Shown: one piece after another, positions 44,346 to 55,113 of the stretch
How positions within the stretch are numbered: the first letter of the stretch is position 1
Layout: the number at the start of each line of letters is the position of its first letter
DNA from: a virus
Taxonomy: Duplodnaviria; Caudoviricetes
Strand: one strand, 5' to 3'
Length of the DNA stretch: 64,000 bases
Virus record (IMG/VR): IMGVR_UViG_3300020577_001702
Location: 5,656 to 69,655 of that record
Made by a program: the position numbers and the translations under genes
The notes under the pieces: model-generated
The model's database searches: none
What the model was told of the DNA's origin: nothing
Seen by the model: only the letters and a program-made list of their open reading frames with translations

Positions 44346-44532
44346 AGTGGTCTTTATTTTATGCGCAACGTCATAGGTTCTTGTCATAATTAGGCACCGG
44401 ACCTGACTGATCGGCAGACTTCTGCGGCTCAGGAGTTTTGGAAGATGTCCGGAGTTTTGGAAATTCAGATTCTGTTGGAGCCTGAAGAACCGCACTGGGA
44501 GCGGGTTTCCGGGTGGTGCCCTAGAGCGAACG

Positions 44533-44575
44533 ACGGATTAACAGTCCGGCGCTCTACCGACTGAGCTATCGGGGA
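44533..44575 (-). pseudogene. 5' half of tRNA-Asn(GTT), positions 1-43 only
   Basis: TCCCCGATAGCTCAGTCGGTAGAGCGCCGGACTGTTAATCCGT: acceptor 5' strand, D arm and anticodon arm with GTT; no T arm and no matching acceptor 3' strand. Confidence 0.85.
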
Positions 44576-44643
44576 ATGATGCGGGTTTCCGGGCGATTGA
44601 GCTTCCAAAACTTTCGCTCTCTTTGGCTCTCTTTCGCTCGACA

Positions 44644-44680
44644 GGGCGCGAACTCTAACAAGAGTTTTGGAAGAAGTAAA
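44644..44680 (-). promoter_or_regulatory. Sigma70-type stable-RNA-like promoter pointing at the tRNA 5' half
   Basis: -35 TTTACT (44680-44675), 17-bp spacer, extended -10 TGtTAGAGT (hexamer 44657-44652), GC-rich discriminator TCGCGCCC. Confidence 0.5.
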
Positions 44681-44692
44681 CTGGAACAATCG

Positions 44693-44741
44693 CGTGAAAC
44701 AATTCCGTGAAACACTCCGTGAAACACTCCGTGAAACAATA
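44693..44741. repeat. Four tandem 12-13-bp repeats CGTGAAACA(C/A)T; fifth copy at 44799
   Basis: Starts at 44693, 44706, 44718, 44730; a perfect DnaA box TGTGGATAA lies at 44766-44774. Confidence 0.8.
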
Positions 44742-44807
44742 GGGTAGGCCGGGACACCAGGAGCCTGTGGATAACTCAGCCACAGCCCGTGGAACAGTCG
44801 TGAAACA

Positions 44808-45011
44808 CTATGTTCTGGAGCAGGAGAAGCAGGTGAAAGCGTCGCCGGATTCGTCCGTGTAGCCGCCAGCCAGGGCCTGCACCTTCCGGCACCGGCAGCA
44901 GCGCCCGGTATGCACCCAGACGAACTGGCTTGGGTGGCGCTCGCGGTGCTGGATTACCCTGGTCACGGCTGCCTTGGCCTTCCGCAGCTCCTCGTCGGTC
45001 ATCTTAGGCAT
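44808..45011 (-). CDS. Small Cys-rich hypothetical protein (67 aa)
   Basis: CCRC...CFSC; last leftward gene before the att region. Confidence 0.5.
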   Translation of the reverse strand: MPKMTDEELRKAKAAVTRVIQHRERHPSQFVWVHTGRCCRCRKVQALAGGYTDESGDAFTCFSCSRT

Positions 45012-50894: not shown

Positions 50895-51103
50895 GAGTGG
50901 AACTCGACAAGATCATCGGGCGTCTTGCGCTGTATGGCACCGACGGTGATACCGCCACCATCGACCCACTGGTACTGGATGATCCACTCCAGCCAGCCGT
51001 CGGCGAGCCGTGTGGTAGGGTGCACCGTCACCGATGACACCTTACCTTCGGCACTCATACGGGCGATATGTCGGCCAACGGCTTCACCCATCTTGACTTC
51101 CAT
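50891..51103 (-). CDS. Hypothetical protein (70 aa)
   Basis: Overlap-coupled. Confidence 0.55.
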   Translation of the reverse strand: MEVKMGEAVGRHIARMSAEGKVSSVTVHPTTRLADGWLEWIIQYQWVDGGGITVGAIQRKTPDDLVEFHS

Positions 51104-51363
51104 CAGCCGTACGCCTTCACCAGGGCGTCGCGAGCGACCTTGGCGTGGGTCACGCCGTCCTTCGTCGCCTTGGCCTTGATCTTGTCGATCACGCTCGGCT
51201 GGAGTCGAATCGTGTACAGGATCATGCCGGCTTCTTCAGCCTTGGCTTTGGCCTTGGCCGGCGCAGTTTTGGCGGGCGCAGTTTTGGCGGGCGCAGCAGC
51301 CTTCTTCGGCGCGGCGGCAGCGGGCTTCTTGGTGGGTGCAGCAGGGGTCTTCTTGGCAGTCAT
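51103..51363 (-). CDS. Histone-H1-like Lys/Ala/Pro tail fused to a ribbon-helix-helix domain
   Basis: AKKTPAAP/PAKTA repeats then ILYTIRLQPSVIDKIKAKATKDGVTHAKVARDAL. Confidence 0.65.
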   Translation of the reverse strand: MTAKKTPAAPTKKPAAAAPKKAAAPAKTAPAKTAPAKAKAKAEEAGMILYTIRLQPSVIDKIKAKATKDGVTHAKVARDALVKAYG

Positions 51364-51365
51364 GG

Positions 51366-51815
51366 TTACTTCTCCTTGTGGTTGATCCGCCATTCAGGCG
51401 GTACGTCGTAGCAAACCTCTCCGTTGGAGTCGAGGTTGTCCAGGTCGCCGCAGTTGGGAACGCACGGCGAGCAAAGTTTTGCAGTGGTTGTGTGGGGCGA
51501 CTCAAAGACCCAGATCATCAGGGCACCACCGAGGTAGGTGGTGTGGCCTTTCACACCATCAATGTCGAACGCGTGGATAGGCTCGTCGCAGTACCAGTTA
51601 TCGCTGAGAGATTCGAGTCGATGCTCGAACTCTTCTTCCAACTCGTCGCCAGCGAACCCTTCTGCGTTAAGCGACTCACGCAGATCGGCCTCGGCTTCCT
51701 CCCAGAAGATGTCAGTACCTGTCTGGATGATCTCTTCGTACACCCAGTCGTTGAGGTTGTTGTTTGCAATGATCCCGAACCGGATGCCGGTGTCAGGGTT
51801 TACGTTCACACTCAT
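51366..51815 (-). CDS. Acidic hypothetical protein with C-terminal Cys motif (149 aa)
   Basis: SD AAGGAG before ATG 51815; CSPCVPNCGDL. Confidence 0.7.
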   Translation of the reverse strand: MSVNVNPDTGIRFGIIANNNLNDWVYEEIIQTGTDIFWEEAEADLRESLNAEGFAGDELEEEFEHRLESLSDNWYCDEPIHAFDIDGVKGHTTYLGGALMIWVFESPHTTTAKLCSPCVPNCGDLDNLDSNGEVCYDVPPEWRINHKEK

Positions 51816-51959: not shown

Positions 51960-52136
51960 TCACCTTCGGTACCAGCCGTAGCCCGGCATGTGATAGAACT
52001 GGTCTTCCTTGACTTTGGCTCGCGCAGTGATCCAGTTGGGTGCCTCGATGGTGTCGATCAGCGTGCCGGACTTCTTCGTGTAGACCGAGTTCAGGACCAC
52101 ACGACCGTCCGGTTGCTCATAGAGGAAGTAGCTCAT
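51960..52136 (-). CDS. Small hypothetical protein (58 aa, MSYFLYEQPDG...)
   Basis: Hand translation; ATGA overlap with the DUF932 stop. Confidence 0.55.
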   Translation of the reverse strand: MSYFLYEQPDGRVVLNSVYTKKSGTLIDTIEAPNWITARAKVKEDQFYHMPGYGWYRR

Positions 52137-53083
52137 GCTGCCAGCTTCAGCACACCATCGAAGACGCGCTGCTTGACGTTGAAGCCTTCACCGAACCACG
52201 CGCTGTCGAGCCGGTTGCCCTGGTTGCGGGCACGCTTCACATGGTCGACGTACTCGGTGGTGGCGTTGACCAGACCCCAGCCGGTGTTGGCAGCCAGATC
52301 AGCACCGATGTACTTGCGGTACCGGAACATGTCGACCACGTTATTCGCGTGGATGTGATCACTGAAACGTTGGGCTTCCAGCTCGTCCTGCGGCACCTTG
52401 AAGGCGTCGTTGACGATCTCCTGGGCCTTCTTCACATCGACGACGATCTTGGCGATAGAGTCCAGGGCCTTCGTGAACGCTTCCCACTGCGCCTGACCCA
52501 GGCCGAGCTGTTCGTGCACGGCGTCGATCTTGAACTCGCGGAAGTGCGGGATGACGATACGACCGTGCTGGTCGCCGAAGCTCTGCTGAAGCGTGTTGTT
52601 GCACACCACTCTGACAGAGGTGAAGTACGCCTGGGTAGAGAACGTCAGATCGTAGGACGTGGCGATGTTCAGGTAGCCGCGCACCTCGTCGGCGCCAAGC
52701 ACCTTGTGGGCGTCGCCGGTCGTTGCCAGCGCCCAGATGCGCTGTCCACCCTTGAGGGAGCCGGCCGTCTCGATCTTCATGTTGTGGCGGGAGAGCAGGG
52801 CGCGGAAGAACTCCAGCACCTCTTTCGGCTGCACTGGCTTGTAGCGGCCGGAGACCACCGAGAACGGGGTGTGGTCCGTGTCGCGAGCAAGTACGAACTT
52901 GTCCTTGAAGTTGTACTCGCCGCCGGCCTCCTCGCGGTACATGACCGGGCGCTTGCTCACGCTCCAGTCAAGACCAGCCTTACGCTGGATGTCCTCGATG
53001 GTGTCGTCGTCACCAATCGTATTGCCCAGGCCGTGCCAGGGCACCGCACCTCGGTAGGCCATCTGTTCAATCATGTGGGCCAT
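52133..53083 (-). CDS. DUF932/DUF945 phage-plasmid family protein
   Basis: MAYRGAVPWHGLG, AGLDWSV, VVSGRYKPVQ, ETAGSLKGG, RVVCNNTL, WGLVNATTEYVDH. Confidence 0.88.
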   Translation of the reverse strand: MAHMIEQMAYRGAVPWHGLGNTIGDDDTIEDIQRKAGLDWSVSKRPVMYREEAGGEYNFKDKFVLARDTDHTPFSVVSGRYKPVQPKEVLEFFRALLSRHNMKIETAGSLKGGQRIWALATTGDAHKVLGADEVRGYLNIATSYDLTFSTQAYFTSVRVVCNNTLQQSFGDQHGRIVIPHFREFKIDAVHEQLGLGQAQWEAFTKALDSIAKIVVDVKKAQEIVNDAFKVPQDELEAQRFSDHIHANNVVDMFRYRKYIGADLAANTGWGLVNATTEYVDHVKRARNQGNRLDSAWFGEGFNVKQRVFDGVLKLAA

Positions 53084-53891
53084 GCTTCGTTCTCCTTGAG
53101 TGAGGTTGTACAACGTCTGCCTGACGCTGTTTGATGTATTCCTCGGTCATACGTACGTTCTTGTGGCCGAGGAGTTTCTGCGCGGCGTATGGATCACCGA
53201 TGTCAGTGGCCGTTTTTCCGCGTATATCGTGTTCGTGAAAACGGGTGGTCCCAGACGACGCAAACTTCGTCATCACCCGCCTCCAGATCGAGCTGAATCC
53301 GCTTGACGCGTACTGTCGCCCCGAACGTGTCGCGAAGACCGTTTTCGACGAACGCGGCAATTTGTCGAGCAGGGTTTGAATCTCCGGCGTCAGCTTGATC
53401 ACGATGCGCTTGCCGGTGCTGTTTTTTGTCTTTAGGGGGCATACGGATATTCCTTCCTCTGTGATGTCCACCCACTTGAGTGCGAGCAGGTCTTGTTGCC
53501 GAAGGCCGGTGAGGACTTTGAGATCGACGTAGACTCGGAGCCAATCAGGGCAAAGCATCTTGAACTGTTCAAGTTCCGAGTCCGTGACGTACCTGTCCCG
53601 CGCCTTAAGGCTGTTGCGTAGCCCTGGCGTAGAACAGGGATTCGCTGTAGCCACTCCCCAAAGGATTCCTTGGTTGAAGGCGTGCGAGAGTAGTGCAATC
53701 TCGCGGTTGCCACGCGTCTTAGCGCGCCGCGTGCGAACATATTCAAGCACGTGCCGTGGTTCAACCTGCGTACAAACCATGTCACCGAAGAATGCGCGGA
53801 GAAAGCGAATCTCCTGGCGGTTATCCTTCTGAGTGCGTTCTGCCTTGCTTGGTACGACATCAAGGAGGTAGCGGTTGAGTAGGTCGGACAC
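53067..53891 (-). CDS. int: Tyrosine integrase, core-binding + catalytic domains only (start uncertain)
   Basis: TVSDLLNRY, LTGLRQQDL (R), KTKNSTGK (K), HDIR (H,R), LLGH...EEY (H,Y). The track's 88 N-terminal residues are the shadow frame of the upstream gene. Confidence 0.85.
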   Translation of the reverse strand: MSDLLNRYLLDVVPSKAERTQKDNRQEIRFLRAFFGDMVCTQVEPRHVLEYVRTRRAKTRGNREIALLSHAFNQGILWGVATANPCSTPGLRNSLKARDRYVTDSELEQFKMLCPDWLRVYVDLKVLTGLRQQDLLALKWVDITEEGISVCPLKTKNSTGKRIVIKLTPEIQTLLDKLPRSSKTVFATRSGRQYASSGFSSIWRRVMTKFASSGTTRFHEHDIRGKTATDIGDPYAAQKLLGHKNVRMTEEYIKQRQADVVQPHSRRTKHGPHD

Positions 53892-54229
53892 AGTTGGATG
53901 TTGTGCTTCCCTGAAAGACGAGAGGGTGACGGCAGCGGGCTTATGGGTTTGGCGTCTTCCTTCCGGTCCCAGATGTAGCTGTACCGGGCGAAAGATGTGG
54001 ACTCCTTGGGTGCCGGGAACCGCGTAACCAGTCCTCGCCGCCACATGAAGCCCAGGGCATCCGACAGTTTGTTGGTTGCGAGTCGAACGTCTTGTTGACC
54101 AAATTCGGCTAAAGCCGCCTTGCGAATCTCCTGGATGTCCATGAGGTCTACGCACGTGACTGGTTCTTCCGTCGCTCGTAAGTGTTTCTCCAGCAAGCTA
54201 TAGATCGTCTTCTCAGACTTTATACCCAT
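53432..54229 (-). CDS. Winged-helix DNA-binding protein (about first 110 aa); C-terminus is an alternate frame of int
   Basis: SD GGGAGG; helix-strand-helix-helix-wing pattern IYSLLEKHL..PVTCVDLM..LSDALGFMWRRGLVTR..RYSYIW. Confidence 0.6.
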   Translation of the reverse strand: MGIKSEKTIYSLLEKHLRATEEPVTCVDLMDIQEIRKAALAEFGQQDVRLATNKLSDALGFMWRRGLVTRFPAPKESTSFARYSYIWDRKEDAKPISPLPSPSRLSGKHNIQLCPTYSTATSLMSYQARQNALRRITARRFAFSAHSSVTWFVRRLNHGTCLNMFARGALRRVATARLHYSRTPSTKESFGEWLQRIPVLRQGYATALRRGTGTSRTRNLNSSRCFALIGSESTSISKSSPAFGNKTCSHSSGWTSQRKEYPYAP

Positions 54230-54263
54230 CGTGCCTCCCGTTCGCTAACTGTCGTCACCCTAC

Positions 54264-54392
54264 TCAATCAGCTTTCTTCCCACGCGCAGCGCGAACGAGG
54301 CCAACGGCTAAGGCCCCAATAAGCACGGTTGTGGTCATGAGCTGATACGTAAGCCCTGCGGCTTTCGTCGCAGTGAGTAGGAACCTCATCAT
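54264..54392 (-). CDS. Small membrane peptide (42 aa)
   Basis: Hand translation MMRFLLTATKAAGL...VLIGALAVGLV... Confidence 0.4.
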   Translation of the reverse strand: MMRFLLTATKAAGLTYQLMTTTVLIGALAVGLVRAARGKKAD

Positions 54393-54395
54393 GAC

Positions 54396-54800
54396 TTACC
54401 CTTCAGTTTGTTGTCTGATCCATCCTGCCAGATCAGTGCGCTCCCTCAAGCGGGCACGGAACTCCGCGAGACTGAGGTTTTCCTGCTCCCACTCTAGGTC
54501 ACGCAAGACGATACCGCCAGCCGGACAGCCGATGATTGCTGCGACGTTCCGACCTTCGCGGTGCCGACCGGACAGCCACTGGTGCTGGAGCACCGAGAAC
54601 AGCTTTGCGATCTGCACCGAACCCCGCTGCGGTACGCGCGGGATGTACTTGTACTCCACCCACAAATCGTTGAGCCTGCCTGAATACCAGTCGTCAGCCG
54701 TACCGGAGCTGTACGGGTTGTTCATTTTCTCATGATGAATGGTTTTCGGGAGCAAACGGTTGACGCCTGCCCGAAAATTATTTTCTGGCTTGCGAGCCAT
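54396..54800 (-). CDS. PD-(D/E)xK nuclease, VRR-NUC/Holliday-junction-resolvase-like
   Basis: GTADDWY...LWVEYK...HQWL. Confidence 0.75.
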   Translation of the reverse strand: MARKPENNFRAGVNRLLPKTIHHEKMNNPYSSGTADDWYSGRLNDLWVEYKYIPRVPQRGSVQIAKLFSVLQHQWLSGRHREGRNVAAIIGCPAGGIVLRDLEWEQENLSLAEFRARLRERTDLAGWIRQQTEG

Positions 54801-55113
54801 GCCGGTCGTCAAGCTCAGGGTGGGTTTTAGTGTACTCTATTACGAAAGCCAGATTGCAGCGAGCGTGCGCAAGATGCGACAACCCGGTCTCCGGGTCAAC
54901 ATCTTCTCCCTCCAAGAAGGCGAAGATATGCCGCAGGCCGGCATCGAGTACACGTGTCCAGGACAAACCCTTGCGCCAGTTGTTCCGGCCGTACTTATTG
55001 CCACCGAACGCCAGGACTCGGGCCTCGGCTTCCAGAGCCGAGACCGGAATCCATGAGAGCGGCGGCTTACCGGCGTCGTGTTTGACGCCGGCAGTCAGAG
55101 CAGGTTTCTTCAC
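54778..55113 (-). CDS. dATP/dGTP diphosphohydrolase (DUF5664)
   Basis: KHDAGKP, GGNKYGRNNW, RH, DPETGLSHLAHARCN; GTG overlaps the upstream TGA. Confidence 0.88.
   Translation of the reverse strand: MKKPALTAGVKHDAGKPPLSWIPVSALEAEARVLAFGGNKYGRNNWRKGLSWTRVLDAGLRHIFAFLEGEDVDPETGLSHLAHARCNLAFVIEYTKTHPELDDRHGSQARK

Follow-up and report, generated by a model that had tools for sequence, protein, structure and literature searches.

Reading frames at the integrase locus

Does the integrase of this phage gain a new DNA-binding domain through ribosomal frameshifting, or is its gene damaged? The window (the whole stretch of DNA that was analysed, 64,000 nt long) contains two overlapping minus-strand ORFs, and we verified the coordinates that had been predicted for them: the integrase (Int) frame lies at -1 relative to the upstream ORF (54229-54155 = 74), which starts as a winged-helix-like (wHTH) gene. 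Very probably, a natural deletion of 442 nt has scarred the lysogeny cassette of this uncultured phage, which is ~70 kb long and has direct terminal repeats. The features of the locus are as follows.

53432..54229, minus strand: winged-helix-like ORF including read-through, 265 aa, ATG start
53067..54155, minus strand: integrase-frame ORF, 362 aa, GTG start, overlapping the 265-aa ORF
53895..54229, minus strand: native winged-helix-like coding sequence, from codon 1 to 2 nt into codon 112
53894..53895, minus strand: deletion junction, placed by blastn and base-by-base comparison with contigs L022, L023 and L024
53874..53894, minus strand: diverged stretch of 21 nt to the right of the junction, genuine int sequence encoding TVSDLLN
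53432..53894, minus strand: out-of-frame int read-through, which adds 154 codons to the winged-helix ORF (stop at 53432-53434) and is a non-native coding frame
53067..53894, minus strand: integrase remnant, equal to Int residues 58-332, core-binding and catalytic domains
53889..53891, minus strand: in-frame GTG, the sole candidate start that keeps the whole Int core (274 aa)
52133..53083, minus strand: DUF932-family gene directly downstream, its start overlapping the int stop; synteny anchor
54264-54392, minus strand: upstream 42-aa small ORF, synteny anchor (tblastn to L004, L005, L007 and L009)
54396-54812, minus strand: upstream 138-aa gene, synteny anchor (tblastn to the same four contigs)

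That both frames are open over 54155-53432, which had drawn attention to the locus, is true but nothing special. In each of the four relatives examined, the +1 frame of the int 5' half stays open over 121-173 codons, and every int gene of this integrase family has a long alternative frame of this kind.

A 442-nt deletion relative to an intact allele

Three contigs from three sequencing runs (L022, L023 and L024; runs SRR33541911, SRR33541902 and ERR8156861) carry an intact allele with three separate genes, encoding a wHTH protein of 135 aa, an excisionase (Xis) of 86 aa and an Int of 332 aa, with wHTH and Int sharing one frame. The Xis is a DUF4224 excisionase whose GTG start overlaps the stop of the winged-helix-like gene, and the Int has an N-terminal arm-binding domain (an R/K-rich start, LPERVY and aromatic beta-strands). 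The window is 98.95-99.8% identical to these contigs in the left flank and 96.4-97.9% in the right flank, and they belong to the same phage species. Window position 53895 corresponds to L022 5335 and 53873 to L022 5799, so that 463 nt in the three contigs face 21 nt in the window, a net loss of 442 nt if the 21 diverged nt are taken as the homologous counterpart of L022 5778-5798. The loss takes out the winged-helix gene from codon 112 to codon 135, the complete xis and the first 57 codons of int; since 442 equals 1 modulo 3, the Int core now lies one base out of frame with wHTH. The native winged-helix part is 100% identical to L022 5001-5335. The 21-nt stretch encodes TVSDLLN where the L022 allele has SLVGELLD; the TVSDLLNRY motif also occurs in homologue P0012, and an intact version of the TVSDLLN-encoding ancestral int allele was not found.

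Could the junction be an assembly or sequencing artefact that hides an intact cassette in the real genome? Although the viral genome was assembled from a metagenome, we consider this exceedingly improbable, since 12 contigs, assembled independently, carry the 265-aa junction ORF in identical form, and the six locations listed each come from a different run (SRR10761723, SRR32380197, SRR32380193, SRR31615983, SRR31615972 and SRR8942298). The three of these contigs that were aligned (L025, L026 and L028) match the window at 99.98-100% identity in alignments of up to 5.8 kb, and the missing 442 nt are unique sequence, neither repeat nor homopolymer. Of the recent indel or assembly error first proposed, the indel therefore stands, as a real deletion allele, and the assembly error falls. 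The deletion, its endpoints, its presence in multiple samples and the intact allele are established, and the arrangement arose by deletion less than about 1-2% divergence ago.

In the model we propose, an ancestral operon piece wHTH-xis-int, still kept by other members of the same phage species, lost the segment from codon 112 of the winged-helix-like gene to int codon 57. This event removed the first protein's C-terminal beta-meander, all of the excisionase and, from int, the ribosome-binding site (RBS), start codon and arm-binding domain, leaving an upstream ORF that reads 154 codons into int in the wrong frame and an Int core that sits in the -1 frame, lacking a proper start. Most likely, a working Int or Xis is no longer made; the variant would consequently be unable to integrate or excise by arm-dependent recombination, and would propagate lytically. 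The case is one of ordinary lysogeny-module decay rather than of a frameshift-controlled fusion, and an apparent recoding candidate that is an ordinary event should be kept off lists of programmed frameshifts and novel integrase architectures. It also provides a base-resolved loss of xis and of the int 5' end within one uncultured phage species, both alleles of which circulate in the environment.

Neither DUF4224 (PF13986) nor a second integrase was matched anywhere in the whole 69.7-kb genome. Among relatives, the gene between wHTH and int matches DUF4224 and three PHROG excisionase families, and the DUF4224 excisionase is present in L004, L005, L013, L019, L022 and L024. The intact Int and Xis proteins have no exact entry in the collection, and DNA searches for near or distant relatives of the locus found none among cultured phages; viral contig scans returned one weak match to the Int core and none to the wHTH part.

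The integrase remnant retains an intact catalytic core

The catalytic domain (Phage_integrase, PF00589) reaches 64.2 bits over residues 191-344 of the 362-aa frame, where the cut-off is 27.1, and 66.3 bits in the whole-genome search. Polymorphism between intact and deleted alleles bears on temperate calls that rest on an integrase domain alone: by Pfam this genome would be scored temperate, and yet it is most likely unable to integrate. The remnant aligns to the lambda Int structures 1Z19 and 1P7D (E about 1e-10), and this alignment, together with the invariant columns of 52-54 homologues, bears out the prediction of a complete R-K-H-R-H-Y set: R (TGLRQQD), K (PLKTK), H-x-x-R (HDIR), H (LLGHK) and Y (EEYIK). 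The predicted absence of the N-terminal arm-binding domain was likewise borne out by tblastn with eight full-length homologues, whose similarity begins mostly at their residue 57-59, equivalent to window ~53894 (outliers at residues 45, 54 and 64, one each); their residues 1-56, the arm-binding domain, had no counterpart in any frame across 52-56 kb. The remnant also lacks a start codon and RBS of its own, the native ATG and RBS falling in the deleted 442 nt.

Within the Int core there is no stop, frameshift or lost catalytic residue. It differs from the intact allele at 18 positions, with a dN/dS of 0.24, like that of neighbouring genes, and it deviates at 3 of 75 conserved columns (range among intact homologues, 0-4), so that neither measure gives a sign of decay. 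The single striking change, from an invariant E to L, is found in the intact allele as well. The core probably looks intact because the deletion is young.

Alternatively, the arm-less core may still be translated, from the GTG at 53891 or another weak internal start, and act as a Cre/Xer-style arm-independent recombinase, for example in integration without directionality control or in multimer resolution. We consider this unlikely. Retention of the core-binding and catalytic domains with every catalytic residue, the low dN/dS, the wide spread of the allele over the 12 contigs and six runs, and an in-frame GTG placed exactly at the start of the core all speak for it, but low dN/dS is equally expected from a young deletion in a pre-existing allele, and the differences cluster in one 4%-divergent patch of ~450 nt, opened by the 21-nt stretch and reaching ~53409, that looks imported. 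Moreover, N-terminally truncated lambda Int binds and cleaves core sites but is incapable of arm-dependent recombination. Laboratory truncations of this kind are core-binding plus catalytic fragments expressed from engineered starts; the window remnant is the same kind of fragment, comprising everything after the arm-binding domain, but none of its possible starts is credible, and any activity would be putative.

Translation signals do not support a start or a frameshift

The proposed GTG start at 53891, with its weak Shine-Dalgarno (SD) sequence and 274-aa product, does exist. Its anti-SD pairing is -3.8 kcal/mol, as compared with -6 to -10 kcal/mol for most genes of the genome, and the in-frame int starts left after the deletion, this one included, range from -2.3 to -3.8 kcal/mol, which argues against a translated arm-less Int. 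The GTG additionally lies inside the ORF that begins at ATG 54229 behind a strong RBS (GGGAGG; SD pairing, -10.3 kcal/mol), so elongating ribosomes would be expected to cover it.

The account favored by the original prediction, a programmed -1 ribosomal frameshift near 53930-53895 producing a 387-aa integrase with the winged helix as a new arm-type domain, is very improbable. The frame relation is indeed -1, the fusion would be of normal integrase length, and the AGTTTTGGAA repeats described below need some DNA-binding domain as their reader; in the intact allele, however, a classic arm-binding domain would read the same repeats. Across all 265 codons of the ORF there is no strict in-frame X_XXY_YYZ slippery heptamer, as had been noted before, and no homopolymer of at least 5. 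The recent deletion origin also counts against a frameshift, as do the three separate genes of the intact allele and the lack of any fused homologue of evident design: there is none among 157 wHTH relatives, where the two wHTH-Int joins seen, the sole ones, are further deletion scars, and none of the 120 Int matches listed (longest, 369 aa) is long enough for a fusion of ~387 aa.

Taking the two routes together, we judge it quite unlikely that the deletion allele yields a selected, active recombinase, be it a GTG-started arm-less Int that acts with neither arm sites nor Xis, or the product of a rare non-canonical -1 shift coupling the winged helix to the Int core. If true, the locus would be a natural snapshot of a heterobivalent integrase becoming a simple recombinase or gaining a new targeting domain.

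The attP-like region and the position of int

The following features mark an attP-like region in the window.

44434..44672: attP-like region with tRNA-Asn-like fragment and repeats, ~8.5 kb from int
44516-44575, minus strand: tRNA-Asn-like 5' fragment, 26.8 bits with the tRNA model, below the gathering score of 29
44501 and 44581: 13-bp direct repeats within the attP-like region

The region holds four exact AGTTTTGGAA copies (repeat evidence, 7 matches vs 1.6 expected), which are presumed to be arm-type sites whose binding domain the Int has lost. Int was correctly predicted to lie far from this site, at ~8.5 kb, within a replication and nucleotide-metabolism operon, and this placement is conserved in relatives with an intact int; it differs from that of lambda-type systems (lambda Int/Xis, P22-like Int). 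The intact L022 allele resembles those systems in domain order, in the R-K-H-R-H-Y set and in the upstream overlapping xis, and the window's own genome likewise has an att-like region, in which 10-mers are repeated near a tRNA fragment. Unlike them, the window has no arm-binding domain, start codon, RBS or xis.

Repeated loss of int in the wider lineage

Int homologues among the 120 matches listed are mostly 320-369 aa long, and all 12 whose N-termini were read have an arm-binding domain. Two shorter proteins were rejected as natural arm-less integrases: P0017 (270 aa) starts 33 nt from a contig end, and P0021 (280 aa) is a full-length gene whose start was called wrongly. More distant relatives show three different larger 5' int deletions, one 1-nt insertion and complete absence of the gene. 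Only Int residues 274-332 are left in L014 and L015, where they are fused to wHTH, 192-332 in L017 and L018, and 310-332 in L016; wHTH-Int joins in relatives keep 50-140 C-terminal Int residues. In L019 and L020 a run of C between arm and core is one C longer, and L007-L011, which are short contigs, have no int beside the wHTH gene. Several independent int truncations have occurred in the wider lineage, and such non-functional remnants, which indicate that loss is tolerated, weigh against a working arm-less core.

Scans of genome contigs with the intact Int found no close relative (>50% identity) inside a bacterial chromosome, and identified no prophage or host of this phage group. The direct scan gave no match at all, and the profile scan returned only Int relatives of at most 41% identity in proteobacterial genomes and one 64% match on a short, probably mis-binned contig.

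Phages with comparable damage have been described. Mycobacteriophage D29 descends by deletion from a temperate phage of the L5 type and, like the phage proposed here, goes on propagating after deletion in a lysogeny-type module. Streptococcus thermophilus phage TP-778L is a lytic derivative of a temperate phage with a truncated integrase gene, which arose when a complete int recombined with a remnant one during excision (PMC3952083). In both TP-778L and the window, a temperate-type module is damaged by deletion in a phage that still propagates, and intact and truncated versions exist among close relatives; in the window, unlike TP-778L, the deletion is internal and also clips the neighbouring gene, and its two alleles are known from metagenomes alone. 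The likeness to IS3-family OrfA/OrfB, whose DNA-binding and catalytic ORFs also overlap with a -1 offset, is superficial: there, programmed -1 frameshifting joins an upstream HTH to a downstream catalytic domain, whereas the window has no slippery heptamer, an overlap that is not conserved, and a recent deletion as its origin.

The winged-helix-like protein

The idea of a two-component system of Int plus wHTH is contradicted by relatives that keep the wHTH gene with no adjoining int at all, and by the truncation of the window protein itself. Members of the wHTH family (157 matches) are stand-alone proteins of 110-140 aa with a conserved C-terminal three-strand beta-meander of ~24 aa, which is absent from the window. 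Two relatives with long odd tails (P0147 and P0121) were rejected as wHTH/int junctions, their contigs having no int remnant. The 265-aa ORF had no significant Pfam match, and the winged-helix-like protein matched no PHROG family. An AF2 model of the L004 homologue (pLDDT 85) has helices at residues 8-19, 26-30, 33-43 and 47-63, followed by strands at 67-71 and 82-86, and its best Foldseek matches, all weak (E 0.07-0.6), were to winged-helix regulators, mostly PadR, MarR/MepR, Fur/PerR and forkhead domains.

A deletion joins an integrase core to a winged-helix-like gene

The window corresponds to bases 5656-69655 of a 69,655-bp IMG/VR record that has direct terminal repeats and is rated complete. 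Two overlapping ORFs define the locus:

54229..53432, minus strand: upstream winged-helix-like (wHTH) ORF, 265 aa, ATG start preceded by a strong GGGAGG
54155..53067, minus strand: Int-frame ORF, 362 aa, nominal GTG start, overlapping the upstream ORF

The Int-frame ORF contains a Phage_integrase catalytic domain (Pfam; 64.2 bits, cut-off 27.1), and all six catalytic residues were present when it was aligned to lambda Int structures and 52 homologues; the upstream ORF had no significant match in Pfam or PHROG. When eight full-length homologues were used as tblastn queries, similarity began at homologue residue 57-59, equivalent to window position ~53894 (save for single queries starting at residues 45, 54 and 64), and the homologues' first ~56 residues had no counterpart in any frame of 52-56 kb. 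The sequence-level details of the original prediction (overlapping ORFs, catalytic set, start of similarity and missing arm-binding domain) were all borne out.

By exact look-up, the 265-aa ORF was present in a public protein collection, where its 90% cluster includes a 135-aa protein encoded on contigs of the same phage species from three runs (L022, L023 and L024). To the left of the junction their identity to the window is 98.95-99.8%, to the right it is 96.4-97.9%, and at the junction itself they carry 463 nt as compared with 21 nt in the window. Translation of L022 revealed three genes:

L022 5001-5408: complete wHTH-like gene, 135 aa
L022 5405-5665: excisionase gene (xis), GTG start, 86 aa, overlapping the preceding stop and the following start
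L022 5607-6605: integrase with arm-binding domain, 332 aa, DUF932 next

The double overlap of xis with its neighbours (4 nt with the wHTH gene's stop, 59 nt with the int start) suggests that the three genes are translationally coupled in the intact allele. Window position 53895 aligns with L022 5335, which is base 2 of codon 112 in the wHTH gene, and 53873 with L022 5799; the deletion amounts to 442 nt if the 21 bases between them are counted as a diverged version of L022 5778-5798. Because the wHTH gene and int share one frame in L022, a loss of this length (1 mod 3) accounts exactly for the -1 offset of the Int frame in the window. The deletion took out the last 24 residues of the wHTH-like protein, the entire xis, and the 5' end of int (its ribosome-binding site and start codon along with the codons for residues 1-57), most likely inactivating both integration and excision. 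Neither a DUF4224 (excisionase) gene nor a second integrase was found elsewhere in the 69.7-kb genome. Truncated integrase genes have precedents in temperate-phage derivatives that propagate lytically, e.g., S. thermophilus TP-778L (PMC3952083).

The original prediction had also allowed for a recent indel or an assembly error. Of these, an assembly error is very unlikely, as independent assemblies carry the same ORF: the exact junction ORF occurs on 12 contigs, with a different sequencing run behind each of the six places shown, and three contigs with the deletion allele (L025, L026 and L028) match the window at 99.98-100% identity across as much as 5.8 kb. The locus is thus a real, recent, population-level deletion.

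Age of the deletion and state of the integrase core

Divergence from the intact allele jumps at the junction, from ~0.2% in the left 1.1 kb (53895-54999; two differences only) to ~4% in the first 450-490 nt on the right (53409-53894; 18 differences plus the diverged 21-mer), and is ~0.5% beyond. This sharp change is suggestive of the import of an int patch, or of a deletion arising in recombination between two related phages. The Int core differs from that of L022 by 18 nucleotides, all within 53859-53409, right after the junction, and by 8 amino acids (dN/dS 0.24; 0 to 0.44 in neighbouring genes). No decay of the core was seen in conserved columns or in comparison with intact homologues: among 75 columns conserved at ≥95%, 3 deviate in the core (intact homologues, 0-4), and the only substitution that stands out, L in place of an invariant E, also occurs in the intact allele. 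While the truncated core may still be in use, we read the locus as the product of a young deletion that hit an int allele a little different from that of L022, or that formed alongside recombination, rather than of long-term upkeep of a truncated gene. A second patch, at 51000-51499 in small genes downstream of DUF932, is also highly diverged from L022, with 33 differences over 500 nt.

Frameshifting and internal initiation

A frameshift-controlled wHTH-Int fusion, as originally proposed, was not supported: L022 encodes three separate genes, and neither an in-frame X_XXY_YYZ heptamer, in agreement with the earlier inspection, nor a homopolymer of at least 5 turned up when all 265 codons of the ORF were scanned. 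Among the 120 listed of 280 Int core relatives, mostly 320-369 aa with a few shorter ones, none was long enough to be a ~387-aa fusion, and in 12 of the 12 relatives whose N-termini were read these comprised a classic arm-binding domain (basic start, LPERVY, aromatic-rich strand, W..L). The long stretch open in both frames is real but not special, and no sign of dual coding: int genes from four relatives also have this alternative frame open, over 121-173 codons. Anti-SD pairing at the in-frame GTG 53891 was as weak as predicted (-3.8 kcal/mol; -2.3 to -3.5 at other in-frame Int starts), as compared with -6 to -10 for most genes of the genome and -10.3 for the upstream ORF. A new integrase architecture or recoding device was rejected in favor of recent deletion from the intact three-gene allele.

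The winged-helix-like family

For the upstream ORF, 157 family members were detectable. Nearly all are 80-165 aa long and align only to the first ~110 residues of the 265-aa query; typical members close with a conserved tail of ~24 residues, absent from the window's ORF. An AlphaFold model of the homologue on a more distant relative, L004 (pLDDT 85), has a helical bundle and beta-hairpin, followed by a flexible linker and, at the C terminus, a meander of three strands. Its Foldseek matches were weak (E 0.07-0.6), most of the top ones being winged-helix regulators (PadR, MarR/MepR, Fur/PerR, forkhead), so that "winged-helix-like" seems a fair fold-level label and no further. In some other relatives the wHTH-like gene is itself interrupted. 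At L005:5340-5800 it changes frame after about codon 15, with no gene called at the site; at L007:1000-1280 and in L008, from two separate runs, the conserved C-terminal tail is shifted into the -1 frame with respect to the N-terminal part.

Repeated loss of xis and int in related phages

Several Int relatives lie on 68-72 kb contigs with the window's gene order (DNA polymerase A, exonuclease, small genes, int, DUF932, dCMP deaminase, ThyX). The odd placement of int within a replication/nucleotide-metabolism operon, noted originally and confirmed here, is thus a conserved trait of the phage group. In relatives, an 84-86-aa DUF4224 protein matching three PHROG excisionase families is encoded between the wHTH gene and int.

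Other states of int in more distant relatives indicate that repeated xis-int loss is a theme of this group, with the window as its mildest version. The gene is complete in L004, L005 and L013. In L017/L018 and L014/L015, Int is reduced to residues 192-332 and 274-332, respectively, with the remnant fused to the wHTH gene; in L016 it is reduced to residues 310-332, and on the short contigs L007-L011 int is absent beside the wHTH gene. Every left breakpoint leaves the wHTH N-terminal domain whole, a pattern that selection on this domain would produce, given that xis overlaps the gene's stop. At L019:2610-3573 (and in L020), an extra C in a GGGCCCCCGCC run splits int exactly between the arm domain and the core, which lies in the +1 frame; 12 contigs carry the called fragment of 190 aa. 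This could be a simple inactivating insertion, or the site may be recoded, CCC_C being also a +1-slippage-prone context.

Relatives and the att-like region

The nearest cultured phages by DNA polymerase were Pseudomonas phage KPP25, phages related to it and some Rhizobium phages (≤37% identity), and the nearest integrases of cultured phages shared ≤34% identity. Across about 186,000 species genomes, no Int relative exceeded 50% identity, bar one on a short, probably mis-binned contig.

44434-44672 (44.4-44.7 kb): att-like region with tRNA fragment, direct repeats and repeated motif
44516-44575, minus strand: tRNA-Asn-like 5' fragment, scoring 26.8 bits, short of the Rfam threshold

The fragment, flanked by 13-bp direct repeats at 44501 and 44581, includes the acceptor 5' strand, D arm and anticodon arm with GTT and no T arm; the site appears to hold the 5' part of a tRNA, not the usual 3' part. 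The region contains four exact copies of AGTTTTGGAA (1.6 expected by chance); if these are arm-type sites, the deleted Int domain would have been their reader. Adjoining it, at 44693-44809, are five copies of CGTGAAACA(A/C)T, four in tandem with a 12-13-nt period, which are candidate iterons or sites for a regulator.
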